Of a stretch of DNA of 64,000 bases, positions 1-23,627 are shown piece by piece. The position numbers and the translations under genes were made by a program. Origin of the DNA: Branchiostoma belcheri (taxonomy: Eukaryota); NCBI RefSeq assembly GCF_001625305.1, contig NW_017803490.1, positions 8,155,655 to 8,219,654 on the forward strand, read 5' to 3'. A model generated the notes under the pieces. The model was not told where the DNA came from and ran no database searches. It saw nothing but the letters and a program-made list of their open reading frames with translations. Positions within the stretch are counted from its first letter, which is position 1, and every line of letters begins with the position of its first letter.

Positions 1-2307
1 GATTCTCAGAACCTCTGCATGCCCACTCCAAGCTGCCCACCACATTGGAGTCCTTCCATCACCATCTTCCTTGTACACGTCAGCCCAAGCATATAGCAAG
101 AAGCTCACGACCTCTGCATGTCCCCTCTCAGCTGCTACCGATAGTGGAGTCCTTCCCATGCGGTCTGTCTCGTCCTTGTTCACCACTGTTATTGGTAAGT
201 GGCTCAACCACTCTACACTTCCAATCTCAGCTGCCAAATGCAGTAAAGTCTTCCCCATACCACTAGCTCTCTCTCTGGATCTTGCAGTGTTTTCCCCTGC
301 TCCAGGGTCTGCCCCTTTCTGCAGCAGGAGTTTGACGATGTTAGAATGCCCGCCCGTCACTGCATCACAGAATGGTGTTTCTCCCTCGGAGTTCTCTGTG
401 TTCACCTGTACACCTGCCTGTAGCAGGGTCTTCACCTTGTCTTCATCACCTGTCCAGGCTGTTATCCTTAACAGCGCATCTCTCCAGGCGTCTCTCAGTT
501 CCTCGTAGGTTTGTGTGGATGTCTCGTTGTCTTCAGGAACATCTGTGTCTGTCTTGTGTCCCTCTCCTAACACTTTATCTGTCTGTGTTGTCTGCTCACA
601 AGTTTCTGACAACACATCTTCTTCAAGCTGTTCCATTGACCGGACATCCCCCTGCGAAGGGCCATGGTACCCAATTTTCTCATATTCTGTAAGTCTGTAA
701 GTTACCTGGCCACTGTCCAGTGCTTTGACACATTCGTCAGTTTCTGAAGTTGGCCACATTTTGGCAATTTTCAGCCCTTTCCTTAGAACTTTGTGTCGTT
801 TGAAAACTTTGATAATAGCGGCCCTGCTCAAGTCTTTGTTAGCGTTGTAGAATTCTGAAAGATCCTCCATTGCCTTCTGTTCTAATTGCTGAGCACCTGA
901 CACAAGCTCCTCCTTAACAGAGTCTTCGATCTTTAGGTAGGAGAACCTCATACGCATTTCTTTAGCAAGCTTTCGGCTTTGTACAGCATTTAGTGCGAAT
1001 TCTAAACGTCTTACACCACGTCTTGCAGAAGATTTCACTTTCCTTACAGTATCAGTTGGTTTCGCACTTTTCTCGTTTTCATCTCTCCAGTCGTCTCTCA
1101 GTTCCTCGTAGGTTTGTGTAGACTCCTCGGAGTCTTCACCTGTTTCCTGCATTTCTGACAACACAAAGACGTCCATAGTTTCCTCCACTATCTCTGACAC
1201 TTCTTCTTCAAGCTCTTCCATTGTCAGAATTTTCACTTCTAAGGGACAGTTGAGCCCAATGTTTTCAAACCCTTTCTTTACGTCAGCAGCCAGCTTGCCA
1301 CTTTCTTGGTCCCTGTTTAATTCTCTGATGCTTTCGTCTGTTTTGGGAAACATCTGTACACAGATTGAAGATGACCAATAGTCACCTAATTCGTTATCTT
1401 TATTATAATGTTTCTCGATAATTTCCACGCACAGGTTGAGACTATCATCGTCAAGTTTGCTCCCATCAGATGTTTCAATGATAATGTAGATGCATTTCTC
1501 ACCCCTTTGATTTGCACGCTGCATGCTTTTAACAGAACATTTTACAAATTTCAAGTCACTTGAATAGTCTTTTCTTTTATGACGCTTTCCTTTTTTTGTT
1601 TTCTTTACCGTTTTCGTCTTGATTTTCTTGCCTTTAGATGATTCAGATGCCTGTGATGAGCCTGCGGCAGATGGAACTTGAACAAAAAATGTCGTATTAT
1701 CCAACGTGCTTTGCTTTGGTTGTGGGCTTAGAGATCTCAAGCTACCAGTTGAAGTACCTGATGATGGTGGGGTCTCAGCAGGCTGACTCTTATCGGTGGT
1801 ATTTTGTGCTAGACCTGAACTAGAGACCTCAATAGATGTACCTTGTAGTGACAGCTCCTTGACATCTACATTTAGACAGTCACTCTCTTCTGTAGAGTCT
1901 TGTTTAGGCGGTGAACTCTGGACTCCTGCAGAAATATTCGATAATGAAGGCGTCACCGTCTCAACAGCTTGACTGTTTTCAGTGATGTCTGTGTTGAGTT
2001 GTGTATCCTGTAGGTCTGGGTACATGGCTCTCAGTCTATCCACGAGGTCTTGCCTTTTTATCCTCTTTAAAGCATGCAGTAGCTCCTGTACTGTCGCCTG
2101 CTTTCCTTCTTGTTGCCTCCATTTTTCCAGCATGGTACGGTTCCGCCATATCAGGTGAGTTGTCGGACTCTTAGTAACCATTTCCTCAACAATATTGTAC
2201 TTCAGTCCTAATTTAAAGCCAAGATCGATCCAGTCATCCCCCAGATTTGACTGTACGATGTCAAAAGCTGTGTCCAACTCTGCTCCTACATCACCTCCAA
2301 CCGCCAT
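1..2307 (-). CDS. Gene A. A death domain (DD) / ankyrin-repeat (ANK) protein. Single exon, 3' end truncated by the window edge. It appears to be a mosaic carrying both subtypes of the middle module. It continues through the acidic tract into ANK repeats.
   Basis: The ATG at 2307 sits in the same 'caagATGGCGG' context as paralogues B, D and E. The reverse-strand translation begins MAVGGDVGAELDTAFDIVQSNLGDDWIDLGFKLGLKYN. Nucleotide similarity to genes B and D (1100-2300) and to gene C (700-1100) is high. The ANK consensus 'TPL..AA..GH..VV..L...GAD' is seen in the reverse translation of 1-500. The ORF track does not list it because no stop lies inside the window. The frame was checked only by eye. 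Confidence 0.55.
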   Translation of the reverse strand, partial: MAVGGDVGAELDTAFDIVQSNLGDDWIDLGFKLGLKYNIVEEMVTKSPTTHLIWRNRTMLEKWRQQEGKQATVQELLHALKRIKRQDLVDRLRAMYPDLQDTQLNTDITENSQAVETVTPSLSNISAGVQSSPPKQDSTEESDCLNVDVKELSLQGTSIEVSSSGLAQNTTDKSQPAETPPSSGTSTGSLRSLSPQPKQSTLDNTTFFVQVPSAAGSSQASESSKGKKIKTKTVKKTKKGKRHKRKDYSSDLKFVKCSVKSMQRANQRGEKCIYIIIETSDGSKLDDDSLNLCVEIIEKHYNKDNELGDYWSSSICVQMFPKTDESIRELNRDQESGKLAADVKKGFENIGLNCPLEVKILTMEELEEEVSEIVEETMDVFVLSEMQETGEDSEESTQTYEELRDDWRDENEKSAKPTDTVRKVKSSARRGVRRLEFALNAVQSRKLAKEMRMRFSYLKIEDSVKEELVSGAQQLEQKAMEDLSEFYNANKDLSRAAIIKVFKRHKVLRKGLKIAKMWPTSETDECVKALDSGQVTYRLTEYEKIGYHGPSQGDVRSMEQLEEDVLSETCEQTTQTDKVLGEGHKTDTDVPEDNETSTQTYEELRDAWRDALLRITAWTGDEDKVKTLLQAGVQVNTENSEGETPFCDAVTGGHSNIVKLLLQKGADPGAGENTARSRERASGMGKTLLHLAAEIGSVEWLSHLPITVVNKDETDRMGRTPLSVAAERGHAEVVSFLLYAWADVYKEDGDGRTPMWWAAWSGHAEVLRI

Positions 2308-3779
2308 CTTGCTGTGGGTTGGTAGTGAAATATATTCCTACTTGTTAGCTCAGTTTAGGTTGTTTGTCCAGTAAAAGCCACCACTGAGAGCCGGCCCTGA
2401 GTTAAAGATTGCCATTTAGCCTTTTCTACGTTCTGAAAAAGCACCTCAATTACAAAAGACCCCTGTCTAATTCGAAACAAATCACTCACACACAGCCAAG
2501 ACTGAATGGTTTAGAAAACATCACACCTGCCACTACTGATAAAGAAAACATTTCTTCAAAGATTTATGTTTTTATAAATATTGTAAGATCTACTTTGAGA
2601 CTCATAATACCGCTACTAACCTCACAACTGACAAATTAAAACACGATAAACTTAAATAGATATATTCATGCAGCATCGATAATTTCTTATGTAGGTACAC
2701 CTTCGATAATCATGTGGGTATTCAAGACTTTCACATGGAGTCTTTGATCACCACACATTCTACAATGATGAAGACAAATGTTTATGGTCTCTTGTTAGGG
2801 CAGGTGAGAGTCTTGTGGGTAGAGCAAATAACCACTGGCCACAAATGATATGGAACAGTGTGTGTCCAGTTTCCCTGTTTTTTTTTGTGTCCTGAGATAT
2901 TTCGGGCCCTCTCAACCATGCAACAGCATGTTGTAAAGAGGTATATATTGACGTTCAAGATTCTTCCCGGCAGCGTTATGTGACCTACTTCCTTGTAGCA
3001 TTTTGACAGTGTCTTAGAAGTATGATAGTCTGTTATAAAAATGCCCAGAAAACATACATCATGAATGGCAATCTACAGTACGGATAGTACGTAACTGGGA
3101 AAATAATGGGTTGCTCTTTTGGCAAAACACGTTTTGCTCTATATGAGTCAAGATCACCAAGAAGTCTTAAAACATTACAAGTGTACGAAATCATTATACA
3201 GAAGCAAAGTTTAACATTTTGATCTACAAATGTAGGTCCTTGGATGCTATGCTTTCTTAGTTACCTTCTTAGTAATCTTAGCATTTATAGAGCAAAAGAG
3301 TCCAAAGCTAGGTTATGCCAATGTTTGAGCCTGTTGGAAGTGGATACAGATGGTTATCTGTTGCCAGGCAAGTGCGCCACTGGTGCTAACAAAGACGTGT
3401 TGAGGTCTGAATGGCAAGCTACATTGGAGACATGTACAAAAGCGCGTGCTACAATGGTGAAGGCTTCCTTAAAGCTGCCCGATTGTATAAGGAAACGTAA
3501 CAAAATGAGAATTTAAGGCTCGAATCCTTTTAAGTAGAAGTTTTTCATTTAAACTAACAGATGAGCTTTTGATAATAAGGGAATGCTTTTGATTGTATCA
3601 AGAGCCCACAACTGACCAGTTTAAATGGTCTGGGCCTTGCTGTTAGTGCGTTGGGTTCGTGAGCTGGTGACCTGGGTTTGAGGATACAAAAACATACGCA
3701 TGTTGGACAAAGGAGCTTTTTAACCTCCTAGGTTGGACTGACATGGTCTTAACTTTGTGTGGAAGTTTTTGCGGACGTC

Positions 3780-4100
3780 TTTGCCATTACATTGGGGCTG
3801 ATTACATTGCCTAACTCGGTAACTCTACTGGTTACAGAGTAAGGCAGCAGGGAGAAGGTTAACCTTTAGCACACTGATGTAGTGATTTGGCTACCATTTC
3901 TCTACTGGTTACAGAGTTAGGCAGAAGGGAGGTTAACCTTTAGCACACTGAAGTTACTACTGCCATTTGGTGACGTCTTTGCCAGTACATTGGGGCTGAT
4001 AACATTGCCTAACTCTGTACTGGTCTCAGAGTTAGGCAGCAGGTAGAAGATTAACCATTATAGCACACTTAAGTAGCCATTTGGGGACAACCAAGGTGCA
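3780..4100 (-). repeat. Tandemly amplified SINE-tail repeat. About 60-bp units ('ctactggttacagagttaggcagcagggagaaggttaacctttagcacactgaagtagccatttgg'), roughly 5 copies.
   Basis: Visible periodicity. Homologous to 7380-7860. Confidence 0.7.
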
Positions 4101-4943: not shown

Positions 4944-7028
4944 TTATATCTTTTTAACCCGGGCTTCCTCAATCACCTTTGCAACATCACTGTGTTTTGT
5001 TTCTACGGCAGCTTGATATGGAGTCTTGCTACTTTTGTCTGGTATAGATATATCTGCCCCTGCTTCGATAAGTACTTTCACAACTTCCATGTTTCCATAG
5101 AATGCTGCTATCCACAATGGTGTTTTTTTATCCAAGTCTGTCTTGTTCAAGTCTGCCCCCGCTTGGGTCAAGATGCTCACAATCTCTGCATGTCCTCTGT
5201 CAGCAGCAAACCACAGTGGAGTCATTCCCATATCATCTACCTTGTTTAAGTCTGCTCCCGCTTGCACCAAGATGCTCACGACCTCTGCATGTCCTTTCTC
5301 AGCCGCCACTGATAGTGGAGTCGTTCCCTCCTTGTCTGCCTTGTTCAAGTCAGCCCCCGCTTGAATCAAGGTTCTCATGGTCTCTGCGTGTCCTTGCTCA
5401 GCTGCTAAAAACAAGGCAGTTGTTCCCCTGCTGTTCGTCCTGTTTAGATCCGCATCTGCTTCTGTCAGGATGCTCACCATCTCTGCATTACCACTCTGAG
5501 CCGCCAACTGCAGTACAGACTTCCCCATACCACTTTCTGTGTTTGCACTGTCTGTGTTTGCCCCTGCTCCAGGGTCTGCCCCTTTCTGCAGCAGGAGTTT
5601 GACGATGCTAGAATGTCCGCCCCTCATTGCATCCCAGAGTGGTGTTTCTCCCTCAGAGTTCTCTGTGTTCACCTGTACACCTGCCTGTAGCAAGGTCTTC
5701 ACCTTGTCTTCATCACCTGTCCAGGCTGTTATCCTTAACAGCGCATCTCTCCAGGTGTCTCTCAGTTCCTCGTAGGTTTGTGTAGACTCTTCACCTGTTT
5801 CCTGCGTTTGTGTACACTCCTCAGAGTGTTCACCTGTTTCCTTCATTTCTGACAACACAAAGGCATCCATAGCTTCCTCCACTATCTCTGCCACCTCTTC
5901 TTCAAGCTGTTCTGTTGACAGAACGTCCACCTCTAAGGGACAGTTGAGCCCAATGTTCTCAAACTCTGCCTGTAAGTCAGCTGCCAGCTTGCCACTTTCT
6001 TGGTAATCATTTAATTCACTGATGCTTTCATCAGTCTTGGGAAACATCTGTATACAAATTGAAGATGACCACATTTTGCCAATTTCGAAACCTTTACATT
6101 GTTTAATGATGAATTCCTTGCACAAGTCTAGACTACTATCATCAATTTGTAAAATGGTATCGAAAATTTCCTCCCGAGCAGACGATTCTACCACAAGATA
6201 GTAGCATTTCCTAAGCATTTCCCTTGCAAGTTGCATGCTACTAACTGCATTCAGTACGAATTTCGGGTCGCTCGAATGTCTGTCACTTTGTTGACTCTGT
6301 TTTCCTTTAGTGATCTTCTTTGTTTTCTTAACTGTTTTCTTCTTGACTTTCTTGTTTTCTTTGCCTATAGGTGATTCAGATGCCTGCGATGAGCTTGTGG
6401 CAGTAGATGGAACTGATGTGGTGTTTTCCAAAGCGCTTTCCTTTCGCTTCTGGCTTAGGACACCAGTTGAAGTATCTGATAATGGTGGGGTCTCAACAGA
6501 CTGACTGTTATCGGTGGTATTTTGTGCTAGACCTGAACTAGAGACCTCATTAGACATACCTGATAGTGACAGTTTCTTCAAATCTACATTTAGACAGTCA
6601 CTCTCTTCTGCAGAGTCATGTTTAGGCTGTGAACTCTGGACAGAAATATCCGAAAATGGAGGGGCCACTGTCTCAACATCTTGACTTTGTGCAATAGTTT
6701 CTGTGTTGAGCTGTGAAGCATCATCCTGTAGATCTTGGTATAGCTTGTCTTTCAGCCTATCCACAAGGTCTTGTCTTTTTATCTCCTTTAAAGCGGCCAG
6801 TAGTTTCACCACTGTCGCCTGCTTTCCTTCTTGTTGCCTCCACTTTTCCAGCATCGTACGGTTCCGCCATATCAGATGAATTGTCTGACTCTTAGTAACC
6901 ATTTCCTCGACAATGTTGTACTTCAGTCCTAATTTAAAGCCAAGATCGATCCAGTCATCCCCCAGATTTGACTGTACAATGTCAAAAGCTGCGTCCAACT
7001 CTGCTCCTACATCACCTCCAACCGCCAT
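4944..7028 (-). CDS. Gene B. A 694-aa single-exon protein: N-terminal death domain, S/T-rich and lysine-rich linker, conserved unknown module, acidic tract, then about 7-8 C-terminal ankyrin repeats.
   Basis: Uninterrupted ORF in the six-frame track. DD-like N-terminus (…LDAAFDIVQSNLGDDWIDLGFKLGLKYNIVEEMV…IHLIWRNRTMLEKWRQQEGKQATVVKLLAALKEIKRQDLVDRLKDK). ANK repeats (GETPLWDAMRGGHSSIVKLLLQKGADPG…, TPLSVAAEKGHAEVVSILVQAGADLNK…). Confidence 0.85.
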   Translation of the reverse strand: MAVGGDVGAELDAAFDIVQSNLGDDWIDLGFKLGLKYNIVEEMVTKSQTIHLIWRNRTMLEKWRQQEGKQATVVKLLAALKEIKRQDLVDRLKDKLYQDLQDDASQLNTETIAQSQDVETVAPPFSDISVQSSQPKHDSAEESDCLNVDLKKLSLSGMSNEVSSSGLAQNTTDNSQSVETPPLSDTSTGVLSQKRKESALENTTSVPSTATSSSQASESPIGKENKKVKKKTVKKTKKITKGKQSQQSDRHSSDPKFVLNAVSSMQLAREMLRKCYYLVVESSAREEIFDTILQIDDSSLDLCKEFIIKQCKGFEIGKMWSSSICIQMFPKTDESISELNDYQESGKLAADLQAEFENIGLNCPLEVDVLSTEQLEEEVAEIVEEAMDAFVLSEMKETGEHSEECTQTQETGEESTQTYEELRDTWRDALLRITAWTGDEDKVKTLLQAGVQVNTENSEGETPLWDAMRGGHSSIVKLLLQKGADPGAGANTDSANTESGMGKSVLQLAAQSGNAEMVSILTEADADLNRTNSRGTTALFLAAEQGHAETMRTLIQAGADLNKADKEGTTPLSVAAEKGHAEVVSILVQAGADLNKVDDMGMTPLWFAADRGHAEIVSILTQAGADLNKTDLDKKTPLWIAAFYGNMEVVKVLIEAGADISIPDKSSKTPYQAAVETKHSDVAKVIEEARVKKI

Positions 7029-7379
7029 CTTGCTGTAGTGTGGTATAGAAGCGTAAAATGGTAGCTAATAATTGCCCTTTGTCCAGCTGCATGTGACACA
7101 TTCCTTTGGGCAAAAACATGTCAATCATGTGAGTTGAAGTTGTTTGGTTTATAGTTACGGTAAACTGAGTTTACTGTGCCCTTCTTGATGTATTTACACA
7201 AGACTCTTTAAACTTTGCCGACTGCACGTCACTCACATACTTGCACAGATAGCGTTTTCAGAGCACGTCAGCAGAACGTACTGCGTCTGCGCGAAACCCT
7301 GATTTTTGGTTGGATGTTTGGTCAACGTTGCACCAGAATTTCGTCTGTTGCAGACGGGGGTCCCACCAATTCTCCATTG

Positions 7380-7860
7380 GTTTCAGGGTTAGGCAGCAGG
7401 GAGAAGGTTAACCTTTAGCACACTGAAGTAGCCATTTGGGGACCAACTCTCTACTGGTTATAGAGTTAGGCAGCAGGGAGAAGGTTAACCTTTAGTACAC
7501 TAATGTAGCCATTTGGCGACCAATTCTCTATTGGTTACAGGGTTAGGCAGCAGGGAGAAAAGGTTAACTTTTAGCACACTGAAGTAGCCAATTGGGGACC
7601 AACTCTCTACTGGTTACAGAGTTAGGCAGCAGGGACAAGATTAACCATTATAGCACACTGAAGTAGCCATTTGGAGACCAATTCTACTGGTTACAGAGCT
7701 AGGCAGCATCGGGCAGGATTCGAACCCTGAACCTCTGGGGTCTGAATTTGAGCCGAACACTCTACCATTACGCCACACGACCCCACTGATGGGAGAAGGT
7801 TAACCTTAAGCACACTGAAGTAGCCATTTGGGGACAACCAAGGTGCACTAGCCAGTAATT
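7380..7860 (-). mobile_element. tRNA-derived SINE (tRNA-like head at about 7700-7790, minus strand) with a tandemly amplified 60-bp tail repeat, about 6 units.
   Basis: The minus strand reads GGGGTCGTGTGGCGTAATGGTAGAGTG…GGTTCGAATCCTGCCCGATGCTGCC, with tRNA-like D and TΨC regions. The 60-bp repeats flank it. Confidence 0.65.
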
Positions 7861-8585: not shown

Positions 8586-11450
8586 TTAACTATGGCCATC
8601 CTCAATTACCTTTGCAACATCACTGTGTCCCATTTCGATGGCAACTTGATACGGAGTCTTTCCAGTTTTGTCTGGTTTAGAAATACCTGCCCCTGCTTCA
8701 ATAAGTACTTTCACAACTTCCATATTTCCATGGTGTGCTGCTCTCCACAATGGCGTCTTTTGATCCCTGTTTGCCTTGTTCAAGTCTGCGCCCGCTTGTG
8801 TCAGGATGCTCACAATCTCAGCATGTCCTTTCTCAGCCGCCACCCACAGTGGCGTTCTCCCCATATCATCTGCCTTGTTCAATTCGGCCCCCGCTTGTAT
8901 CAAGACGCTCGCGACCTCTGCATGTCCACTCCAAGCCACCACTGATAGGGGAGTCGTTCCCTCATCATCTGCCTTGTTCAAGTCAGCCCCTGCATGTGCC
9001 AAGATGCTCACGACCTCTGCATGTCCATTCTCAGCTGCCGCCCACAGTGGAGCCCTTCCCATGCTGTTTGCTTTGTTCAATTCGGCCCCCGCTTGTATCA
9101 AGATGCTCACAATTTCTGCATGTCCATTCAGAGCTGCCACCAATAGTGGAGTCCTCCTCTTATCATCAGCGTTGTTCAAGTCTGCCCCTGCTTGTGTCAA
9201 GATGCTCACAATCTCTGCATGTCCTCTCTTAGCCGCCACCCACAGTGGAGTCACTCCTAAGACATCTGCCTTGTCCAAGTCCGCCCCTGCTTGTACCAAG
9301 ATGCTCACGACCTCTACATGTCCACTCCAAGCTGCCTCCCACAGTGGAGTCACTCCTAAGACATCAGCCTTGTTCAAGTCAGCCCCCTCTTGTGCCAACA
9401 TGCTCACGACCTCCGCATGCCCATTCTCAGCTGCCCACCACAGTGGAGTCCTTTTATCATCATCGGCCTTGTTCAAGTCTGCGCTCGCTTGTATCAAGAT
9501 CCTTACAATCTCGGCATGTCCTTTCTCAGCCGCTGCACACAGTGTAGTCCTTCTCTCATTGTCTGCCTTGTTCACATCAGCCCCTGCCTGTGTCAAGTTC
9601 CTCACAATCTCGACATGTCCCCTCTCAGCCGCCACCCTCAGTGGAGTCTCTCCCCTATCGTCTGCCTTGTTCAAATCTGCCCCTGCTTGTATCAAGATGC
9701 TCACAATCTCTGCACATCCCTTCAAAGCCGCCACCAATAGCGGAGTCCCTACCTCATTATCTGCCTTGTTCAAGTCTGCCCCCGCTTGTATCAAGATGCT
9801 CACGATCTCGGCATTACCACTCTGAGCTGCCAACCACAGTGGAGTTTTCCCCATACGACTTGCCAGATTTGCAACTGCTGGGTCTGCCCCTTTCTGCAGC
9901 AGAAGTCTAACAATGTTAGGATGTCCGCCCCTCACTGCATCCCAGAGTGGAGTTTCTCCCTCGGAGTTCTGTGTGTTCACCTGTAGACCTGCCTGTAGCA
10001 GGGTCTTCACCTTGTCTTCATCACCTGTCCAGGCTGTGATCCTTAACAGCGCATCTCTCCAGGCGTCTCTCAGTTCATCGTAGCTTTGTGACGATTCTTC
10101 ATCTGTTTCCTGCGTTTGTGTAGACTCCACGGAGTCTTCATCTGTTTTCTGCGTTTGTGTAGACTCCACGGAGTCTTCATCTGTTTCCTGCGTTTGTGTA
10201 GACTCCACGGAGTCTTCAGCTGTTTCCTTTGTTTCTGACAACACAAAAACGTCCATAGCTTCCTCCACTATCTCTGCCACCTCTTCTTTGAGCTGTTCCA
10301 TTGACCGGACATCCCCCTGCAAAGGGCCACTGAACCCAATTTTCTCATACTCTGTCTGTAAGTCTGCGGTGAGCTGGCCACTCTCTAGGTATTCAATCAG
10401 TGCTTTGATATATTCGTCAGTTTTTGGGAAGATTTGGACATAGATTGAAGACGGCCACATTTTGGCAATTTTAAGCCCTTTTCGTAAAACTTTGTGTTGT
10501 TTGAACACTTTGATAATAGCGGCTCTGCTCAAGTCTTTGTTAGCATTGTAGAATTGTGAAACGTCTTCCATGGCTTTCTTCTCTAAGTGCTGATGAGCAC
10601 CTGACACAAGTCCCTCCTTGAGACAGCTTTGAATCTTTAGATAGCAACACTTTATACGGATTTCTTTAGCAAGCTGTTGGCTTCGTACAGCATTTAGTGC
10701 GAACTCTAAACGTTTCACATCAAGTCTTGCACTTGACGTATACCTGGAGCTTGATTTTCCTTTCTTTCCTTCCTTCTTACCTGCTTTGGTACTGTTCTTG
10801 CTTTCTTTGTCTTCGTCTCTTGAGGTCGTCTTGACTCCTTTGATAGTACTTTCCTTGTTTTCTCTGTCTCTATCTCTTGAGGTCGTCTTGACTCCTTTGA
10901 TAGTACTTTCCTTGTTTTCCCTGTCTTTATCTCTTGAGGTCGTCTTGACTCCTTTGATAGTACTTTCCTTGTTTTCCCTGTCTTTATCTCTTGAGGTCGT
11001 CTTGACTCCTTTGATAGTACTTTCCTTGTTTTCCCTGTCTTTATCTCTTGAGGTCGTCTTGACTCCTTTGATAGTACTTTCCTTGTTTTCCCTGTCTTTA
11101 TCTCTTGAGGATGTCTTGACTTCTTGCTCTTCGCCCAGCTGTAAAGAAGACAGACCCTTAAGGCAAAGATTCTCTTGTACTCTGTCCACAAGGTCTCGCC
11201 TTCCTGTCCTCTTCAAAGCTGTCAGCAATTTCTCCAGTGTTGCCCTTTTCCCACTTACTCGCCTCCATTTTTCCAGCACAGTACGGCTTCGCCTCACTAG
11301 ATTTACCTCCCTCTCATTTCGGATTTCCTGTATGACGTTGTGCTTCAGTCCTAGCTTTAAGGCAAGCCGTATCCAGTCCTTCCCCAGGTCTGGCTGTAGA
11401 ATGTCAAAAGCTGCGACCAACTCTGTCCCTGTGTCACCTCCAGCCGCCAT
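8586..11450 (-). CDS. Gene C. A DD-ANK paralogue of about 955 aa, with internal coding minisatellites and about 16-17 ankyrin repeats. The track ORF extends upstream to 11645 in frame, but the homologous start is MAAGGDTGTELVAAFD at 11450.
   Basis: Track ORF 8586..11645. In paralogues B, D and E the start aligns with the internal Met 'RGKMAAGGDTG', in the same nucleotide context 'ccgccatcttgc'. The C-terminal half is a long ANK array (…TPLWLAAQSGNAEIVSILIQAGADLNKAD… repeated). Confidence 0.8.
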   Translation of the reverse strand: MAAGGDTGTELVAAFDILQPDLGKDWIRLALKLGLKHNVIQEIRNEREVNLVRRSRTVLEKWRRVSGKRATLEKLLTALKRTGRRDLVDRVQENLCLKGLSSLQLGEEQEVKTSSRDKDRENKESTIKGVKTTSRDKDRENKESTIKGVKTTSRDKDRENKESTIKGVKTTSRDKDRENKESTIKGVKTTSRDRDRENKESTIKGVKTTSRDEDKESKNSTKAGKKEGKKGKSSSRYTSSARLDVKRLEFALNAVRSQQLAKEIRIKCCYLKIQSCLKEGLVSGAHQHLEKKAMEDVSQFYNANKDLSRAAIIKVFKQHKVLRKGLKIAKMWPSSIYVQIFPKTDEYIKALIEYLESGQLTADLQTEYEKIGFSGPLQGDVRSMEQLKEEVAEIVEEAMDVFVLSETKETAEDSVESTQTQETDEDSVESTQTQKTDEDSVESTQTQETDEESSQSYDELRDAWRDALLRITAWTGDEDKVKTLLQAGLQVNTQNSEGETPLWDAVRGGHPNIVRLLLQKGADPAVANLASRMGKTPLWLAAQSGNAEIVSILIQAGADLNKADNEVGTPLLVAALKGCAEIVSILIQAGADLNKADDRGETPLRVAAERGHVEIVRNLTQAGADVNKADNERRTTLCAAAEKGHAEIVRILIQASADLNKADDDKRTPLWWAAENGHAEVVSMLAQEGADLNKADVLGVTPLWEAAWSGHVEVVSILVQAGADLDKADVLGVTPLWVAAKRGHAEIVSILTQAGADLNNADDKRRTPLLVAALNGHAEIVSILIQAGAELNKANSMGRAPLWAAAENGHAEVVSILAHAGADLNKADDEGTTPLSVVAWSGHAEVASVLIQAGAELNKADDMGRTPLWVAAEKGHAEIVSILTQAGADLNKANRDQKTPLWRAAHHGNMEVVKVLIEAGAGISKPDKTGKTPYQVAIEMGHSDVAKVIEDGHS
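10088..10225 (-). repeat. In-frame 36-nt coding repeat x about 3.5 inside gene C, encoding the acidic 'EDSVESTQTQETD' units.
   Basis: 'ctgcgtttgtgtagactccacggagtcttcatctgttt' is repeated. The peptide is ETAEDSVESTQTQETDEDSVESTQTQKTDEDSVESTQTQETDEES. Confidence 0.9.
10790..11110 (-). repeat. In-frame coding minisatellite inside gene C. A 60-nt unit x about 6 encodes (K)TTSRDKDRENKESTIKGV.
   Basis: Exact 60-nt periodicity 'tctcttgaggtcgtcttgactcctttgatagtactttccttgttttccctgtctttatc'. The track ORF shows the peptide repeat. Confidence 0.9.
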
Positions 11451-12205: not shown

Positions 12206-12833
12206 CCAGCCAACCCTAAGGTAATTGGTACCCAGGCTAAGTGGCTTACACCAGACGTTTAGTGAAATATTTACCGTAAACAAACTTTACGGTTAACCGT
12301 GCCATGTTAGACTTTACTGAGTGTCTAAATTTACAAACTAACAAAAGACCGAGGTCACTGGCCTGTACATAACAGATTAATTAACAAGTCACTTGGAAGT
12401 AAGTACGTCAATGAGTCGCGGTAACAGGTGATATACCCAGGGGTATCGAGTCCTTTTTGGAAATTTGTCTAGTAAGTGAAAAGTCATTCGAGGTAAGCAT
12501 CTAGATGTACATCTAGTTTTTCTAGCTGTACATCATTCGCAGCCCAGTACAAACTGTGCTTAATATCATGATTTCTGTGACTTCGCTCTTCACTCTGGTC
12601 AGGAGCAAGAAAGAATTGACCCCAAATGTAAGTTTCTTACATTATATTTCATTGACATGTGCAAGAAGACTAGGTAAATCTTCAATTCAGTAAATTATCA
12701 ATTACTGCTGCAATTCATAAATGAAACAATTGGCAACTAAATGTTATCCTCTTGTAGTGTGCCATTCTGCAACTCATTTAATGCAGATATCAAGTAATTT
12801 TCTAACTCCAGTATAGTCTCTGTTAGTATCAGG

Positions 12834-15065
12834 TTATGTATTTTTAATTAAGCATTCCTCAATCACCTTAGCAACATCACTGTGTCCCATTTCTATGGCA
12901 GCTTGATAGGGAGTTTTGCCAGTTTTGTCTGGTATAGAAACATCTGCCCCCGCTTCAATAAGTACTTTCACAGCTTCCATGTTCCCACAGTGTGCAGCTG
13001 TCCACAATGGTGTCTGTTCATCCTTGTTTGATTTGTTCAGGTCCGCCCCCGCTTTTATCAAGATGCTCACAATGACTACACCTTCACTTTCAACCACCAC
13101 CCACAGTGGCGTCCTTCCCATAATGTCTGCCTTGTTCAAGTCCGCCCCAGCTCGTATCAAGATGCTCACGATCTCGGCATGTTTACTCCACGCTGCCACC
13201 CAGAGTGGGGTCTCTTCCATGCTGTTTGCCTGGTCCAAGTCCGCCCCCGCTTGTGTCAGGATGCTCACAATCTCTGCACTTCCTCTCTCAGCCGCCACCC
13301 ATAGTGCAGTTCTTCCCTCATCATCTGCATTGTTCAAGTCTGCCCCCGCTTGTATCAAGATGCCAACAACCTCTGCATGTTTCCTCTTAGCCGCCACCCA
13401 CAGCGGAGTCCTTCCCAGAACACCTGCTGTGTCCAAGTCAGCCCCTGCTTGTATCAAGATGCTCACGACCTCTGCATGTCCATTCTCAGCTGCCGCCCAC
13501 AGTGGAGTCCTCCCCATGCTGTTTGCCTTGTTCAAGTCCGCCCCCGCTTGTATCAAGGTGCTCACCATCTCTGCATTTCCACTCTCAGCTGCAACGAAAA
13601 GTGCAGTTCTCCCCTCATCATCTGCTTTGTCCAAGTCCGCCTCTGCTTGTGTCAGCATGCCCACAATCTCTGTATTACCACTCTGAGCTGCCAGCTGCAG
13701 TAGAGTCTGCCCAATAACACTTGCTGTGTTTGCCCCCGCTCCAGGGTCTGCCCATTTCTGCAGCAGGAGTTTGACAATGTTAGGATGTCCTCCCCTCACT
13801 GCATCCCAGAGCGGTGTTTCTCCCTCGGAGTTCTGTGTGTTCACCTGTACACCTGCCTGTAGCAGGGTCTTCACCTTGTCTTCATCACCTGTCCAGGCTG
13901 TGATCCTTAACAGCGCATCTCTCCAGGCGTCTCTCAGGTGCTCGTAGGTTTGTGTAGATTCTTCGCCTGTTTCCTGCGTTTGTGTAGACTCCTCAGAGTC
14001 GTCACATTTTTCCTGCGTTTCTGACAACACAAACATGTCCATAGCTTCCTCCACTATCTCTTCCACTTCTTCTTCAAGCTCCTCCATTGTCAAAACGTCC
14101 ACCTCTAAGGGACAGTTGAGCCCAATGTTCTCAAACTCTGCCTGTAAGTCTGCGGCTAGCTCGCCACTTTCTTGGTACCTGTTTAATTCGCTGATGCTTT
14201 CGTCAGTTTTGGGAAACATCTGTACACAGATTGAAGATGACCACATTTCACCAATTTCGAAATCTTTGCAAAGTTTAAGGATGATTTCCTTGCACAAGTC
14301 TAGTCTACCACCATCGATTTGTGATAGGGCCTCTAACAGTTCTTCCCGAACAGATGATTTTACCACAAGATAGTAGCACTCCTTACGCTTTTGCTTTGCA
14401 AGCTGCATACTACTAACTGCTTTCAGTACAAATTTCGGGTCGCTCGAATGTCTGTGACTTTGTTGACTCTGTTTTCCTTTAGTGGCTTTTTTTGTTTTCT
14501 TACCAGTTTTCTTCTTGACTTTCTTGTTTTCTTTGCCTATCGATGATTCAGATGCCTGCGATGAGCTTGTGGCAGTAGACGGCAGTGTGGTATATTCAAA
14601 CTTGCCTTGCTTTGATCGTGGGCTAGAGACACTCTCTTCTGTGGAGTGTTGTTTAGGCGGTGAACTCGAGAATCCTGTTGAAATATCCGATAATGGTGGG
14701 GACACCGTCTCAACGACTCGACACTTTTCAGTGACGTCTGTGTTGAGCTGTGGATCGGCATCCCGTAGGTCTGGGTACTTGTCTTTCAGTCTGTCCACGA
14801 GGTCTTGTCTTTTTATCTTCTGTAAAGCGTGCAGAAGATCCTGTACTGTCGCCTGCTTTCCTTCTTGTTGCCTCCATTTTTCCAGCATGGTACGGTTCCG
14901 CCATATCAGGTGAATTGTCGGACTCCTATTAACCATTTCCTCGACAACGTTATACTTCAGTCCTAATGCTAAGCCTAGGTCGATCCAGTCATCCCCCAGG
15001 TCTGACTGTATAGTGTCAAAAGCTGCCTTCAACTCTGTCTCTGCGTTAAAACCAACCGCTGCCAT
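12834..15065 (-). CDS. Gene D. A 743-aa DD-ANK paralogue: DD, linker, unknown module, acidic tract, then about 9 ankyrin repeats.
   Basis: Uninterrupted track ORF. N-terminus MAAVGFNAETELKAAFDTIQSDLGDDWIDLGLALGLKYNVVEEMV. ANK repeats (RTPLWAAAENGHAEVVSILIQAGADLD…). Confidence 0.85.
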   Translation of the reverse strand: MAAVGFNAETELKAAFDTIQSDLGDDWIDLGLALGLKYNVVEEMVNRSPTIHLIWRNRTMLEKWRQQEGKQATVQDLLHALQKIKRQDLVDRLKDKYPDLRDADPQLNTDVTEKCRVVETVSPPLSDISTGFSSSPPKQHSTEESVSSPRSKQGKFEYTTLPSTATSSSQASESSIGKENKKVKKKTGKKTKKATKGKQSQQSHRHSSDPKFVLKAVSSMQLAKQKRKECYYLVVKSSVREELLEALSQIDGGRLDLCKEIILKLCKDFEIGEMWSSSICVQMFPKTDESISELNRYQESGELAADLQAEFENIGLNCPLEVDVLTMEELEEEVEEIVEEAMDMFVLSETQEKCDDSEESTQTQETGEESTQTYEHLRDAWRDALLRITAWTGDEDKVKTLLQAGVQVNTQNSEGETPLWDAVRGGHPNIVKLLLQKWADPGAGANTASVIGQTLLQLAAQSGNTEIVGMLTQAEADLDKADDEGRTALFVAAESGNAEMVSTLIQAGADLNKANSMGRTPLWAAAENGHAEVVSILIQAGADLDTAGVLGRTPLWVAAKRKHAEVVGILIQAGADLNNADDEGRTALWVAAERGSAEIVSILTQAGADLDQANSMEETPLWVAAWSKHAEIVSILIRAGADLNKADIMGRTPLWVVVESEGVVIVSILIKAGADLNKSNKDEQTPLWTAAHCGNMEAVKVLIEAGADVSIPDKTGKTPYQAAIEMGHSDVAKVIEECLIKNT

Positions 15066-15164
15066 CTTGCTGTAGTGTGGTGGACGCTGTGAAATATATT
15101 CCTCACTTTTCTGTTGAATTGAAGTTGTTTTCCCAGTAAAATAACACTGCAGCTTTGTTACTGA

Positions 15165-15175
15165 CTATAAATAAG
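15165..15175 (-). promoter_or_regulatory. TATA-like element (CTATAAATAAG) about 100 bp upstream of the gene D start codon, within the conserved 5' flank.
   Basis: TATAAATA motif in a 5' flank that is about 85% identical to gene C's. Confidence 0.35.
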
Positions 15176-15584
15176 CACTTCTCAATCACAAAAACCCCAG
15201 GCCTGAGACCTTCAAAACAATAGGGTTGACCCTAAACCTAACCCTATCGCTCACATGATTGAGATTGAGTTACAACTGCCAATTGAGTACTGTTTTGGCT
15301 TGCAGAGTTCACCCGTGTTGGTACATGTCAGATATAAAATTCATCAAATTGTCAATTACAGCACAATGCATTTACCCAGATCTTCACCTGCACAGTATTC
15401 ATTTATTTAATAGTATGAAGATTCAAGATGTCAAACCTGGGACCAGACTGTAAGGTTTGAACCACTCACAAGTGCACCAGGCAGGACTCCTACTCTTTTC
15501 GATAAGTCTGGTGGGGTGTGGCTCTCCCAAACAGCCGACCAGTTCATTTGACCTCCCATCCCAGGGACCTTCCTAACCGAAGCG

Positions 15585-15735
15585 AGGTACTCATTTACAC
15601 CTGAGTGAAGTGAGGAAAGTCGAGTATCTTTCCCAAGGGGCACAACTATCGGTGACATCGGACAGGATTTAAACGCAGGACCTCTTGGGTCTGAGCCGAA
15701 CACGCTACTGCTACGCCACACGACCCCAGCCTTTG
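15585..15735 (-). mobile_element. tRNA-derived SINE copy (same family as 7700-7790), with the conserved 'cacctg…gtgaggaaagtcg' tail.
   Basis: The minus strand reads ggctggggtcgtgtggcgtagcagtagcgtgttcggctcagacc…gcgtttaaatcctgtccgatg. Tail similarity to 41390-41460 and 38120-38165. Confidence 0.6.
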
Positions 15736-16079
15736 TGAAGGAATGGGCGACCAACCGTCTCTGTGACATCACTTTATGCAAAAGGACACGTAACCCGGTG
15801 AAAACATTTTTTAATTCATAACAATCAAGAAAACTTTACATTAACTAATAATATTAATTAACCATTCATGTCACAACCATTACATTTTGTACAGCTTACA
15901 AATTGTGTCAATGAACTACTAGTAATTGAAAAATCACTTAATATTCGAACATTAAAAAATGAGGTATATACATGTACACATAAAAATATGAAATAATGTG
16001 TTCTAAAGGCTTTTGAAGTTGACTGTATGTAAAGTGAACATTTTGAGCAAGTCGCTGCCACCATCAATTGAAAAGTTGC

Positions 16080-16645
16080 TGGATTTTAATCAAAGCCGGT
16101 GTAATGTAGCCAGTTGCCGCCGCACCGCATGCCTGTGAAGCTGGTGTACATGTTACGCCAAATGGCAGTTATACCGGCTATACAGATACAAAGCCGCACA
16201 GATAAAAAGTACAGTATGAAATGGCATTGATATGAAACCTTTTAAGTTGTAACCCAATATTTTGTGTCAAATTCTCCAGCCACTCTCAGAATTTCTATTT
16301 TTAATGAGAGGTAAGTTTCTTTTACACTATGTTGCCTTTTTTATGACAAGATAACTGCATGTTTATGTAGGAAATTTTTTCCTAGAAGTATCGCAGAGTG
16401 GAACTCGCTGTCACCAAGTACAGTAGGGGCATTGTCATTAGATTGCTTTAAACAATGTCTAGAGCTAGAAGTTCAAGGGTTAGGTGTAACAAGTCGACCG
16501 GTGAAATGTAGCCAGCTGCCGCCACGCCGTGTGCCTGAGAAGCTGGTGTGTTACGCCGAAGGGCGGTTATACCGGCTATACAGATACAGAAGCTGGTGTG
16601 TTACGCCGAAAGGCGGTTATACCGGCTATACAGATACAGAAAATG
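16080..16645. repeat. Dispersed repeat family containing a tandem subunit of about 50 bp ('ttacgccgaa.ggcggttataccggctatacagatacagaagctggtgtg'). Copies lie at 16080-16200 and 16495-16645, inverted copies at 53040-53225, and a fragment at 36490-36545.
   Basis: Seen directly. Confidence 0.65.
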
Positions 16646-16974
16646 TTGTGTCAATGAACTACTAATACCCTGGCAGAACTGAACAGTAAACTTAACAGTA
16701 AACGTAACTTTAATAATAATAATATACTTCACTTTTCATGGAAACTACTGCACCACTTTAACAGAGTGAACATTCGGTGTCCCCAGATGAACTTTACCAG
16801 CTTGACCTGCGACCTTTCTCTGGTAGATCCCAGACTGGGACTGCTGCAAAGGCTGCTGGGACTGGGAAGGCATTCTGGGATACCGCGCAGCTGTGGCATG
16901 CCCAATAGTTTGCTGTGGATGGAAAACAAGATATTACATAAATTTTGCAAAAATTAAAAATACATGTATCACAT

Positions 16975-17087
16975 TCACAATATACACACACCATATCACA
17001 TACACACACACACATATCACACACACACACACACACACATATCACACACACACACACACATATCACACACACACACACACACACACA

Positions 17088-17127
<40 letters not shown>

Positions 17128-17140
17128 ACACAGACAATTT
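16975..17140. repeat. (CA)n / (CACACATAT)n microsatellite
   Basis: Seen directly. Confidence 0.95.
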
Positions 17141-17329
17141 AGAGTTTTAGCACTATACATTCATCAAAAACTGCATCTAAAATTCAAGATGACCCTTTTC
17201 AGGCTTTAGGGGCAATTCAGATCGTGTTGTTCACTCGTTTTGTTGGGACCAATAGTGGAGGTGTGAACAATCCACTGGCAGATAGTTAGAAAACATTATG
17301 AGCGTCTCTGTCCTTGGTGCTGAATGCCT

Positions 17330-17743
17330 TCACTTAACAACAGTTACTTTTTGAGGCTGTAGGGACAGTGGGTTGTTATGCACTGTGTCTGAGGCACAGT
17401 ATTGGAAGGTGGAGCCCATCCCTCTCCTTCCACTGCCTTTTACCTCCCCAACTGAGGTCAGGTAACCATTAATTTTACACAGGCGCAATATATTTTGCCA
17501 AAGTGCTTCCCTATCAACAATACAACATGCAAATTGTTTTGTTTTGACTGTTGCCATGCCAACCACCTGAGTGACAGGATGATGCCTCTCCACCATGACT
17601 GAACTCATGGGCGGGGCCAGTCCCATGGCAACCGGACCCTTCCCAGCATGCCCCAGTCGTGGGCCCTCTTGCTTGGCTGTGACCTTGGCTGTGATTGTCC
17701 TTGACCCCGGCTTCTGGGCTGTGGATGACCTTGAGCTCGGTGC
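17330..17743 (-). CDS. POC5: POC5 terminal coding exon (C-terminal region). It may contain an optional 87-nt intron.
   Basis: The track ORF contains AMGLAPPMSSVMVERHHPVTQVVGMATVKTKQ, matching the conserved POC5 C-terminal motif 'MGVSPPMSSVVVEKHHPVT'. Acceptor 'ctgtttcaag|GCACCG' at 17745/17744. Stop at 17330. Confidence 0.55.
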   Translation of the reverse strand, partial: APSSRSSTAQKPGSRTITAKVTAKQEGPRLGHAGKGPVAMGLAPPMSSVMVERHHPVTQVVGMATVKTKQFACCIVDREALWQNILRLCKINGYLTSVGEVKGSGRRGMGSTFQYCASDTVHNNPLSLQPQKVTVVK

Positions 17744-18146
17744 CTTGAAACAGTGACACAGCAAAATAACATTAACCACAGAAAATTTGGATCTAAACAA
17801 AGTATTAGCTACAAGATATATACACGTATTATGAAAAAACTTACATAAATACTTGTCAAGGTTGAGATGAGAATTTTATGGAATTTTCAAGCAGGCTGTG
17901 AAAGAACCAATTGTGAGTAAAGCCTAAAGACAGAATTTTCTGTAAAAACAATGCTGAATCATATACATGTAATACATGTACATGCATCTATCACCATTCA
18001 ATGAATGCCACCAGTTTCTGATCAAAAAGCAAATGTGATTGAGCACTTTTAATAAATATGACAAATTTTCAAATAATAAGTTATGAATGAGACCAGTGCC
18101 CCACTAACTACAAAAACAAACGTTAATTTCTGTAACTAAGTCTTAC

Positions 18147-18316
18147 AGTTTTGGTAGCAGGTCTGGCAGTACTGAAGCTGACGGTGGGTCTGGGAGGGGG
18201 CTGCTGGCTGGTGACCACGCGGGGAGGGGCTGCATGGGGGGGTCCTGACTGGTACACCTCCTCGTGGGGCACTACTGTACCCCCTTCCTCAGCCTGGGGG
18301 TCTGCTGGCCTACCTC
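18147..18316 (-). CDS. POC5: POC5 exon (proline-rich region)
   Basis: Acceptor 'ttccttttccaccccag|GAGGTAGG'. Donor 'AAAACT|gtaaga'. The phase is compatible with the flanking exons. Encodes a Pro-rich segment (…PHAAPPRVVTSQQPPPRPTV…). Confidence 0.5.
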
Positions 18317-19193: not shown

Positions 19194-19344
19194 CCTGTTC
19201 GCCCTGGTGGAACATGGACATGGCCTCCATGTTGAGGGCGCAGACACCACGCATGAACGCTTTTTTCATCGTCTCCTCGTACTGGTCTCGGTCACCGTGG
19301 AGACGGCTTACCTCATTCCGTGCCGCCTCTAGGGCTTCATTCAA
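19194..19344 (-). CDS. POC5: POC5 exon encoding the conserved 'MKKAFMRGVCALNMEAM' motif
   Basis: Acceptor 'ttccctgccctacag|TTGAATGAAGCC'. Encodes LNEALEAARNEVSRLHGDRDQYEETMKKAFMRGVCALNMEAMSMFHQGEQ, which matches the POC5 'DSMKKAFMRGVCALNLEAM' block. The donor is weak (G|gtcggt) and was placed by phase. Confidence 0.55.
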
Positions 19345-23585: not shown

Positions 23586-23627
23586 AGCAGGGAATATATT
23601 TCACTTAGTCTACAAGACTACGGCAAG

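Follow-up and report, generated by a model that had tools for sequence, protein, structure and literature searches.

The window analysed here is a stretch of 64,000 nucleotides of Branchiostoma belcheri DNA without Ns, and gene A occupies positions 1 to 2307 of its minus strand. A single open frame begins with an ATG at 2307 and extends for 769 codons, passing the window edge at position 1 while still open. Exact look-ups of the gene B and P0001 proteins in a contig collection yielded no DNA past the window edge. The missing C-terminus was taken from P0001 (RefSeq XP_019622303.1), which shows 100% identity to gene A across 451 aa and then extends by a further 121 aa, without stops, to the protein end, so that the full protein comprises ca. 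890 aa. Neither stops nor frameshifts were observed in the 769 codons or in the 121 residues from P0001, and the minus-strand frame, whose disruption was named in an earlier note on this DNA as a sign of a pseudogene, is intact. In the public RefSeq model for the locus, genes B and A are merged into one chimera. Related genes B, C, D and E are found in the window, and the layout of the family consists of a Death domain, a low-complexity linker, a TRADD-N-like module, an acidic tail and ankyrin repeats. The order in gene A is Death domain, S/T/K-rich linker, module 1, YEELRDDWRD, basic linker tail, module 2, YEELRDAWRD and ankyrin repeats. L001, from the other B. belcheri assembly, carries two separate genes, L2 and then L1, that is, P4-type and then C-type. 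The features of gene A are as follows, gene positions (nt) being counted from the ATG.

2309..3470, minus strand: 5' flank of gene A (-2 to -1163), of the L1/C-type-gene lineage (L001:4454-3296, 76.9% over 1220 nt)
1..2307, minus strand: coding sequence of gene A, a stop-free frame (C-terminal 121 aa from P0001)
2158..2307, minus strand: gene nt 1-150, recent conversion tract common with neighbour gene B (144/150 identity to B)
2023..2247, minus strand: Death domain, aa 21-95 (Pfam PF00531, E=9.8e-13, 48.5 bits against a cut-off of 22.6)
1968..2165, minus strand: gene nt 143-340, D/E-like tract inside and after the Death domain (informative sites)
1555..2022, minus strand: S/T/K-rich low-complexity linker (painting and alignment)
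1081..1554, minus strand: module 1 and acidic tail, aa 252-409, intact, predicted TRADD-N-like, P0004/L2 subtype (identity, tree)
1080..1138, minus strand: first copy of the STQTYEELRD(D)WRD block, ending after WRD (88% identity to the second copy)
1079..1080, minus strand: putative recombination junction, gene nt 1228/1229 (..TGGAGAGAT / GAAAACGAGAAAAGT.., WRD/ENEKS; abutting alignments)
1006..1079, minus strand: basic linker tail from a C-type gene (ENEKSAKPTDTVRKVKSSARRGVRR; aligns with the L1 and C linkers, painting best with L1)
478..1005, minus strand: module 2 and acidic tail, aa 435-610, C-type, degenerate (identity, tree, deletions)
477..535, minus strand: second STQTYEELRDAWRD block, running on into ALLRITAWTGDEDK (at least 94-95% identity across all paralogues)
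1..477, minus strand: start of the ankyrin-repeat domain, the rest lying beyond the window (Pfam Ank_2, Ank, Ank_4, Ank_5)

The Death HMM PF00531 also matched genes B, C, D and E. Ankyrin repeats were detected in the window part of gene A (Ank_2, E=1.1e-22; Ank, E=7.9e-22), and more are present in the C-terminus of P0001. The S/T/K-rich linker is B-like at nt 360-570 and bears little likeness to any sampled paralogue at nt 570-660.

Comparison of gene A with its paralogues by blastn resolved three segments: nt 1-1228, which matched B, D and E (gene B with 78.5% over 1253 nt) and is also L2/P4-like; nt 1229-1790, which is C/L1/P2-like; and nt 1789-2307, which was matched by all paralogues. The C-type segment, whose absence the earlier note had named as refuting the mosaic, was clearly present, nt 1281-1695 aligning with nt 720-1173 of gene C (78%, E=2e-109) and giving short weak matches only with B, D and E. 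Blastn segments, amino acid identities and the module tree agree in supporting the proposal of the earlier note that gene A is a mosaic carrying both module subtypes; its segments cluster with different paralogue lineages, with statistical support.

Module 1, which contains the peptide ...YWSSSICVQMFPKTDESIRELNRDQESGKLAADVKKGFENIGLNCPLEV... (window 1081-1554), shows 76% amino acid identity to P0004, 71% to L2 and 63–66% to B, D and E, and 81.5% nucleotide identity to L001:7405-6815. In the module tree it forms a clade with P4 and L2 (93% bootstrap) that is nested in the B/D/E clade (82%). It carries the subtype signature ETSDGS.LDDDSL, common to P0004 and L2 and absent from the stand-alone genes of the window. 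The assignment of a B/D-type module to 1100-1560 was thus right as to the broad clade but not as to subtype or exact span; on identity and tree, module 1 is of a third, P0004/L2 subtype within the broad B/D/E clade.

Module 2, which contains the peptide ...KIAKMWPTSETDECVKALDSGQVTYRLTEYEKIGYHGPSQGDVRSMEQLEED... (window 478-1005), shows 71% amino acid identity to gene C and 78% to P2a/P2b, against 31% to module 1, and falls inside the C-type clade of the tree (82% bootstrap). A C-type module had been placed at 700-1100; its type was correctly recognized, but it reaches down to about 478. The second acidic/YEELRDAWRD block postulated ahead of the ankyrin repeats is real (gene nt 1773-1831), being 88% identical by blastn to the first copy (nt 1170-1228). 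Called against both gene C and L1, module 2 has suffered in-frame deletions of 21, 12, 3 and 36 nt, located after about window positions 747, 718, 700 and 617, respectively. With these deletions family-invariant residues were lost, together with beta-strand 3, part of a helix and the C-terminal helix. AF2 runs using the same aligned family sequence set gave a pLDDT of 86.1 and a pTM of 0.79 for the gene C module and 53.7 and 0.40 for module 2, values of confidence that are not a measurement of stability. Relaxed selection on module 2 was considered and rejected, since pairwise dN/dS in its retained codons (0.27-0.31) lies in the range of intact paralogue pairs and not above it. Decay is therefore deduced from the deletions and not from the substitution pattern, and module 2 is a second, already decaying copy of the middle domain. 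Splicing out of module 2 as an intron was also rejected: the paralogues are single continuous ORFs, the first YEELRD block lacks a GT donor as read from the sequence by eye, and the 138 in-frame GT..AG pairs around module 2 are an unremarkable number.

The state of module 2 raises the question of whether gene A is a decaying pseudogene, killed by the fusion and left with a residual open frame. Invariant core residues are missing from module 2, for which a folded domain is no longer predicted, the ankyrin repeats of gene A deviate from the family consensus, and the related copies in the other assembly are damaged, L1 by a stop and L2 by a frameshift. Nevertheless, even at a dS to the nearest relatives of at least 0.24-0.33, about 890 codons have stayed open; none of the four indels breaks the frame (the chance of four out of four being multiples of 3 is approximately (1/3)^4 = 0.012); dN/dS is about 0.3 in the retained module 2 codons; and the Death domain, module 1 and the conserved YEELRD-ANK1 block are all intact. 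We therefore consider that gene A is improbable as a pseudogene.

At the junction, homology to L2 ends at nt 1228 (1227 in the alignment with P0004) and homology to L1 starts at 1229, with no overlap, filler or shared repeat between them. Alignments of gene A to B, D and E likewise stop at nt 1228. The left side stops within the conserved YEELRD.WRD/ALLRITAW block and the right side opens in the C-type basic linker, so that the breakpoint lies neither in homologous sequence nor at equivalent positions, as it would in NAHR or Lepore-type events. For lack of shared homology, that end of the exchange is unlikely to derive from classical homologous unequal crossing-over; a join that was illegitimate or used microhomology fits the junction better. 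The nearest sampled relatives of each half of gene A show 74–82% nucleotide identity, with dS of 0.24-0.6; the true parents are therefore unsampled, and the original junction sequence and any microhomology cannot be reconstructed from these relatives. Homologue searches with a two-module query and with a junction-centred query returned, respectively, no protein spanning both modules and no matches, but both missed even P0001, in which the two queries occur exactly, and are hence uninformative.

A finer mosaic than one of two pieces is indicated by the 5' half. Over nt 1-150, gene A agrees with B at 144 of 150 positions (96%), where D and E reach 119-122/150 and where the overall identity to B is 78.5%; the nine informative sites in nt 8-94 are all of B-type, and the longest A–B run comprises 16 agreeing polymorphic sites (permutation p=6e-4). 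It is a short near-identical tract in low-identity surroundings, beyond chance, as is characteristic of gene conversion. By contrast, 19 of the 23 informative sites in nt 143-338 are of D/E-type (Fisher p=1.6e-4 against the B-like tract), and painting of the D/E-like tract gave a score of 88/90 to gene E. The 5' flank of gene A matched only the 5' flank of L1 and part of the upstream region of P2b, and showed no match to the corresponding flanks of genes B, C, D or E; L2 has approximately 256 nt of gene A-type 5' flank, with 75% identity. As judged from these alignments, the significant B-like to D/E-like switch within the Death domain and the L1-type flank each add a piece to the mosaic. Gene E, in the same window, underwent a similar replacement of its 5' half, indicating that exchange is pervasive in the cluster.

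The L2-then-L1 stretch of L001 is collinear with gene A except for 3,887 nt, and L001 resembles the window in its flanks and in having D-like and E-like genes, with D' inverted. That A and L1 are alleles was rejected on account of their identity of only 74–77%. L002 (from the assembly of a B. floridae x B. belcheri hybrid) and L003 (P0004) were rejected as the same locus, their flanks being unlike those of the window, and are therefore unusable to test the assembly of gene A.

The separate L2 and L1 genes bear on a second alternative, namely that the RefSeq assembly, which we take to be the haploid merge of a highly heterozygous genome, wrongly joined a P4-type and a C-type gene, so that no real molecule carries both modules. 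The same order of the two genes in the other assembly would suit such an error, the sole public protein with the junction, XP_019622303.1, comes from the same assembly as the window, and neither the look-ups nor the homologue searches brought independent support for the junction. However, assemblers mis-join in shared repeats, whereas this junction has a truncated conserved block on one side, a unique linker on the other and no Ns; the frame is kept exactly, both across the join and through the four deletions specific to module 2; and module 2 copies no gene of the window (78% to gene C). An artefact of this kind is thus very unlikely. That the module was instead duplicated in situ within one gene and then diverged, with no need for paralogue exchange, is scarcely credible and, to judge from the sequences, is effectively refuted by the module phylogeny, for it would account for the head-to-tail repeat of module, acidic tail and YEELRD.WRD and for the 88% identity of the YEELRD blocks, which are at least 94% conserved in all paralogues and therefore uninformative on origin, but not for modules that share just 31% and group each with the modules of other genes (bootstrap 93% and 82%), nor for the C-type linker tail that accompanies module 2.

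The location of modules 1 and 2 in different paralogue clades indicates that the tandem arrangement arose by paralogue exchange and not by duplication in situ. Gene A is probably a chimera, though an intact one, among the intronless paralogues of an amphioxus tandem cluster: the 5' part of a gene of the P0004/L2 subtype of the B/D/E clade is joined to the 3' part of a C-type (L1/C/P2-like) gene. The former contributed the sequence from the ATG through module and acidic tail, up to the WRD of the YEELRDxWRD block, and the latter the last stretch of basic linker, a module, an acidic tail and the ankyrin repeats, in what we infer to have been an illegitimate event with little or no microhomology. 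One route could be a deletion of ca. 3.9 kb between adjacent head-to-tail genes, such as L2 followed by L1. Another could be a one-ended homologous invasion or conversion, copied from a donor of the B/D clade and end-joined in the linker of the recipient. The L1-type 5' flank fits the invasion or conversion route and is at odds with a simple two-gene deletion, unless the upstream gene had a similar flank. Gene conversion from neighbours afterwards overwrote parts of the 5' half, making nt 1-150 B-like and nt 143-340 D/E-like. Of the origin by unequal crossing-over or gene conversion that had been suggested for gene A, paralogue exchange and conversion tracts are thus upheld, and classical crossing-over at the junction is not. 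That recombination within a tandem gene family should yield a gene like A, with two modules, is nothing out of the ordinary.

Module 2 may now act as ca. 200 residues of added linker, while selection would keep the frame open, so that the Death domain, one working TRADD-N-like module and the ankyrin array stay together. Gene A is presumably an adaptor or sensor in innate immunity or cell death, both function and expression being deduced from maintenance of the ORF alone. In a bolder and rather doubtful reading, the cluster might be a germline diversification hot spot, in which "signalling" 5' halves (Death domain plus TRADD-N-like module) are repeatedly moved onto different ankyrin "sensor" 3' halves by exchange anchored on the near-identical YEELRD-ALLRITAW-ANK1 block of ca. 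180 nt. Genes A and E would then both be transplants, with the other B. belcheri assembly differing in architecture at related positions; haplotypes would differ in their adaptor repertoire, and a two-module protein like that of gene A would be an occasional by-product, which could itself be functional, as a variant whose spacing is altered or which bears an additional decoy module, acidic or degenerate. On the preferred reading of a chimeric paralogue, gene A provides a datable natural example of a multidomain immune-type adaptor gaining a duplicated domain, along a path of illegitimate joining of tandem paralogues, patching by gene conversion and in-frame erosion of the redundant copy.

The fold predicted for the middle module is closest to TRADD-N: a two-layer alpha+beta sandwich with a four-stranded antiparallel sheet and two kinked helices (RRM-like), the N-terminal domain of human TRADD (PDB 1F3V, 1F2H) being among the closest known systems. 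Searches by sequence assigned the module to no domain: Pfam TRADD_N (PF09034) and TRADD-like_N (PF20694) gave no match even at E ≤ 10, and no TRADD was found when the module profile was searched against PDB sequences. A transitive link below threshold was observed, the module profile matching P0016 (E=4.6e-8) and P0016 matching TRADD_N (E=0.002, 18.6 bits against a cut-off of 25). The module profile retrieved just 16 proteins at E ≤ 1e-3 among 1.84 billion representatives, and the Death-domain/ankyrin family with this module is amphioxus-restricted. By structure prediction, a TRADD-N-like fold can now be assigned to its previously unannotated middle module.

Fusion genes of tandem paralogues are known from Lepore-type haemoglobin fusions and from chimeric NLR or R genes in plant clusters. 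Like these, gene A combines the 5' part of one paralogue in frame with the 3' part of another, in a cluster with pervasive gene conversion. Lepore-type fusions, being products of homologous unequal crossing-over between equivalent positions, leave the number of domains unchanged; by contrast, the breakpoints of gene A are at non-equivalent, non-homologous positions, and as a result one domain is duplicated.

Lineage-specific expansions of proteins with a Death-like domain, TRADD-N and a variable C-terminus (ankyrin, WD40 and others) have been described in marine invertebrates including Branchiostoma, and their variability has been attributed to recombination (Kaur, Iyer, Burroughs and Aravind 2021, eLife, PMC8195603). 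The text of that study gives DED + TRADD-N + WD40 as the Branchiostoma architectures and Death + TRADD-N + ankyrin as that of the sponge Amphimedon; in the portion of its supplementary tables that was covered, neither the accession of gene A nor an amphioxus Death+TRADD-N+Ankyrin architecture was found. The gene A family resembles those proteins in its N-terminal Death-superfamily domain followed by a TRADD-N-like alpha+beta module, its flexible low-complexity or acidic linker, its fast-evolving repeats and its tandem, species-variable genes, and differs from them in that its module has no Pfam TRADD match and that gene A has a second, degenerate module. A genome-wide catalogue of novel domain combinations in amphioxus innate-immune families (Zhang et al. 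2008, Genome Biol, PMC2575513) makes no mention of ankyrin in its main text, where neither the gene A family nor a two-module gene is described. Like the genes of that catalogue, gene A is a DD-containing, lineage-expanded amphioxus gene with rearranged domains. Lineage-specific expansion, domain shuffling and recombination in amphioxus DD/TRADD-N families having been documented already, current views are not overturned, and gene A reflects ordinary dynamics of such a family.

Gene A belongs to a tandem set of five paralogues, and its features, with those of its neighbours, are as follows.

Features in the window (coordinates, strand, description)
1-2307, minus: gene A, intronless paralogue
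4944-7028, minus: gene B, intronless paralogue
8586-11450, minus: gene C, intronless paralogue
12834-15065, minus: gene D, intronless paralogue
23628-25856, plus: gene E, intronless paralogue; mosaic by comparison with L4 and paralogues (with flanks, 23030-26000)
1081-1554, minus: A_m1, first module of gene A (aa 252-409; module alignment)
478-1005, minus: A_m2, second module of gene A (aa 435-610; module alignment)
10789-11125 and 10096-10228: 57-nt linker repeat and 39-nt acidic repeat of gene C
e.g. 300-535 in A and ~24750-24950 in E: YEELRD-ALLRITAW-ANK1 block (nucleotide identity)

All five genes carry an N-terminal Death domain and C-terminal ankyrin repeats, the sole domains recognised by Pfam, and the module of ~140-160 aa between them lacks a Pfam match in genes A-E. 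The linker of gene C contains 5.9 copies (95% matches) of the 57-nt repeat, encoding 19-aa KTSSRDKDRENKESTIKGV units, and its module is followed by 3.4 copies (96%) of the 39-nt acidic repeat. The 3' flank of gene C holds a 77-nt minisatellite (7365-7708; 4.4 copies, 86%), to which units 3' of gene B (3768-4084) are related; homology links the B, C and D 3' flanks over ~0.4-0.85 kb. Long open frames of up to 349 aa run antisense to the ankyrin arrays (8776-9825, 12916-13686 and 71-508, all plus strand), and were rejected as genes, being by-products of the 99-nt repeat periodicity.

The earlier note had proposed that gene A is a recombinant mosaic carrying both module subtypes, provided that its frame was intact. 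Translation of the minus strand from the ATG at 2307 to position 1 gave 769 codons with no stop, the other two minus-strand frames containing 50 and 56 stops. The top protein match to this translation, XP_019622303.1 (P0001, Branchiostoma belcheri), is 100% identical to gene A over 451 aa and adds 121 residues to the C-terminus beyond the part in the window, for a total of ~890 aa. The other part of the P0001 model, a public RefSeq record, is identical to gene B: the model is a chimera joining B aa 338-694 to A aa 319-890, and it begins at an internal Met, leaving out the Death domains of both genes. That gene A is a pseudogene is disfavoured by its ~890 open codons, by indels that are in frame only, and by a dN/dS of ~0.3.

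Comparison by blastn with the paralogues divided gene A (nt counted from the ATG) into a B/D/E-like part (1-1228), a segment matching gene C (1281-1695 versus C nt 720-1173; 78%, E=2e-109) and a part common to all paralogues (1789-2307). An internal repeat of 59 nt (1170-1228 versus 1773-1831, 88%) corresponds to two YEELRD.WRD blocks, the second of which the note had also described. Gene A aligns with B, D, E and L2 as far as nt 1228 and with P0004, a database member of the family, as far as 1227; the alignment to L1 begins at nt 1229. L1 (L001:1171-3297, C-type) and L2 (P0004 subtype) are genes of locus L001 in another B. belcheri assembly, GCA_025402995.1. The join reads ..CTGGAGAGAT|GAAAACGAGAAAAGTGCG.. 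(WRD|ENEKSAK). To its left, a conserved block that normally runs on into ALLRITAWTGDEDK is truncated after WRD, and to its right stands the terminal stretch of the KxxKST-type basic linker found in C-type genes. No homology was found between the two sides, any microhomology being of a few bases at most, which argues at the sequence level that this end of the exchange is not a homologous crossover at equivalent positions. Hence, of the unequal crossing-over or gene conversion initially suggested, exchange between paralogues stands, but homologous crossover at the 1228|1229 end does not. Breakpoints at non-equivalent positions would explain why the module was duplicated, not swapped. A misassembly at the join is unlikely, since the join lies outside shared repeats, the frame is exact across it and module 2 is unique; the window contains no Ns.

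The identity of the two modules was assessed in a protein alignment of 14 modules from the window, two other assemblies and database proteins. A_m2 was 71% identical to C, 78% to the database modules P2a/P2b and 31% to A_m1, whereas A_m1 was 63-66% identical to B/D/E, 71% to L2 and 76% to P0004. In a neighbour-joining tree A_m2 fell inside the C-type clade (82% bootstrap), and A_m1 grouped with P0004 and L2 (93%), nested in the B/D/E clade (82%). Alignment and tree together therefore establish that gene A carries both subtypes, and the phylogeny rejects in-situ duplication as the source of its two modules. Designation of module 1 as B/D-type holds at the level of the clade; strictly, it belongs with P0004 and L2 to a third subtype (ETSDGS.LDDDSL) that no stand-alone gene in the window bears.

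A_m1 retains the invariant and near-invariant motifs that the module alignments show. Relative to C, L1 and all other family members, A_m2 shows four clean deletions of 21, 12, 3 and 36 nt, which remove SIYVQIF, (N/I)EYL, one residue and AEIVEEAMDVFV. Mapped on an AF2 model of the gene C module (pLDDT 86.1, pTM 0.79; topology H-b1-HH-b2-b3-HH-b4-H), these eliminate strand b3, a helix end and most of the C-terminal helix. With the same aligned family set, A_m2 itself gave pLDDT 53.7 and pTM 0.40, residues 97-149 all scoring <50. All four deletions are multiples of three (chance ~1.2%), and dN/dS in the retained codons is 0.27-0.31, no different from that of intact pairs. We infer that selection on the downstream ankyrin domain holds the frame open and that module 2 has turned into a redundant spacer.

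The module gave no match to Pfam TRADD_N and no sequence match in PDB. When its profile was run exhaustively (HMM search) against 1.84 billion representative proteins, only 16 reached E<=1e-3. The strong matches were all Branchiostoma DD-ankyrin proteins, among which only P0001 (gene A) and P0002, a gene model fusing two complete neighbouring genes, have more than one module. The weak ones were small proteins bearing the motif GSIxVELxC...DYESGK..RLEEEF.KIGF; P0016, which is among them, also has two matching stretches and a sub-threshold TRADD_N hit (E 0.002, 18.6 bits, cut-off 25). Lineage-specific expansions of TRADD-N proteins have been described in Branchiostoma, and the same study sets out a general layout in which a Death-like domain and TRADD-N precede variable C-terminal repeats, ankyrin among them (Kaur et al. 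2021, PMC8195603). Given this parallel, and sequence methods giving no confirmation, we call the module TRADD-N-like by predicted fold only, its membership of the family being unproven at the sequence level.

Two routes to the fusion were considered. At L001, L2 lies directly upstream of L1 in the same orientation, and gene A is collinear with the 5' part of L2 plus the 3' part of L1, minus 3,887 nt (L001 2928-6814); a deletion between such neighbours would yield exactly the architecture of A. Alternatively, a B/D-clade donor would have invaded an L1-type recipient near its start, copying would have proceeded through the donor module as far as WRD, and end-joining in the recipient linker would have closed the end. 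The 5' flank of A is L1-like over 1.16 kb, of which L2 shares only ~256 nt, and this fits invasion and end-joining better than the two-gene deletion. The nearest sampled relatives of the two halves are 74-82% identical (dS 0.24 to L2, 0.33 to P2, 0.61 to L1); the true parents thus lie outside the sample and the routes are not separable. Those closest relatives look disabled in GCA_025402995.1: in L1 a stop replaces W at codon 26, and L2 (L001:5344-7697) has lost 1 nt in GTTAAGG, three codons past WRD; either may be a sequencing error.

Painting of gene A plus its flank against ten paralogues, in windows of 90 nt, revealed a finer mosaic.

Best matches along gene A (gene nt)
-299 to -30: L1 only
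-29 to 150: B (86/90)
120-420: E/D (up to 88/90)
360-570: B
570-660: weak to every sampled paralogue
660-960: L2/P0004
930-1110: D/E/L3
1080-1230: P2/E
1231-1800: L1/P2/C
1800-1950: all paralogues (conserved block)
1920-2070: B

Nucleotides 1-150 are identical to neighbour B at 144/150 positions, versus 119-122/150 for D and E; for nt 151-340 the values are 173-174/190 for D/E versus 160/190 for B. Of the informative sites, 9/9 at nt 8-94 are B-type and 19/23 at nt 143-338 are D/E-type, a switch with Fisher p=1.6e-4; a run test gave p=6e-4. Over the proximal 1.16 kb of the 5' flank, the only matches are to the L1 5' flank (76.9%) and to part of the sequence upstream of P2b, the 5' flanks of B, C, D and E giving none.

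Gene E is likewise chimeric: L4, a gene of P0011/P0015 type in the other assembly, is the only match to its 5' flank (-599 to -60) and to its 3' half (nt 1261-2340). Coding nt 1-1320 of E combine tracts resembling C, A, B and D, with as many as 116/120 positions shared with B. This shared pattern indicates, from sequence comparison, that exchange among the paralogues is pervasive; it appears bounded by the start-codon region and the YEELRD-ALLRITAW-ANK1 block. The block (~180 nt) keeps at least 94-95% nucleotide identity in all paralogues and other assemblies, versus 70-85% elsewhere. Because mosaic boundaries in both A and E fall at this block, it may serve as an anchor for recombination; alternatively, it may be strongly constrained. 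Relative to window 12817-26008, L001 has a D-like gene (92% nucleotide identity) inverted with respect to the shared spacer and E-like gene, and gene content differs on the A/B/C side; either the assemblies differ by structural polymorphism of one cluster, or L001 and the window are paralogous clusters.

The reading of gene A as a product of exchange between paralogues is thus supported, in refined form. In tandem families, both chimeric genes and gene conversion are commonplace. In amphioxus, domain shuffling and lineage-specific expansion of the DD and TRADD-N families are documented (PMC2575513, PMC8195603), and gene A, a chimera whose TRADD-N-like module is duplicated and partly eroded, is a new and well-defined case.
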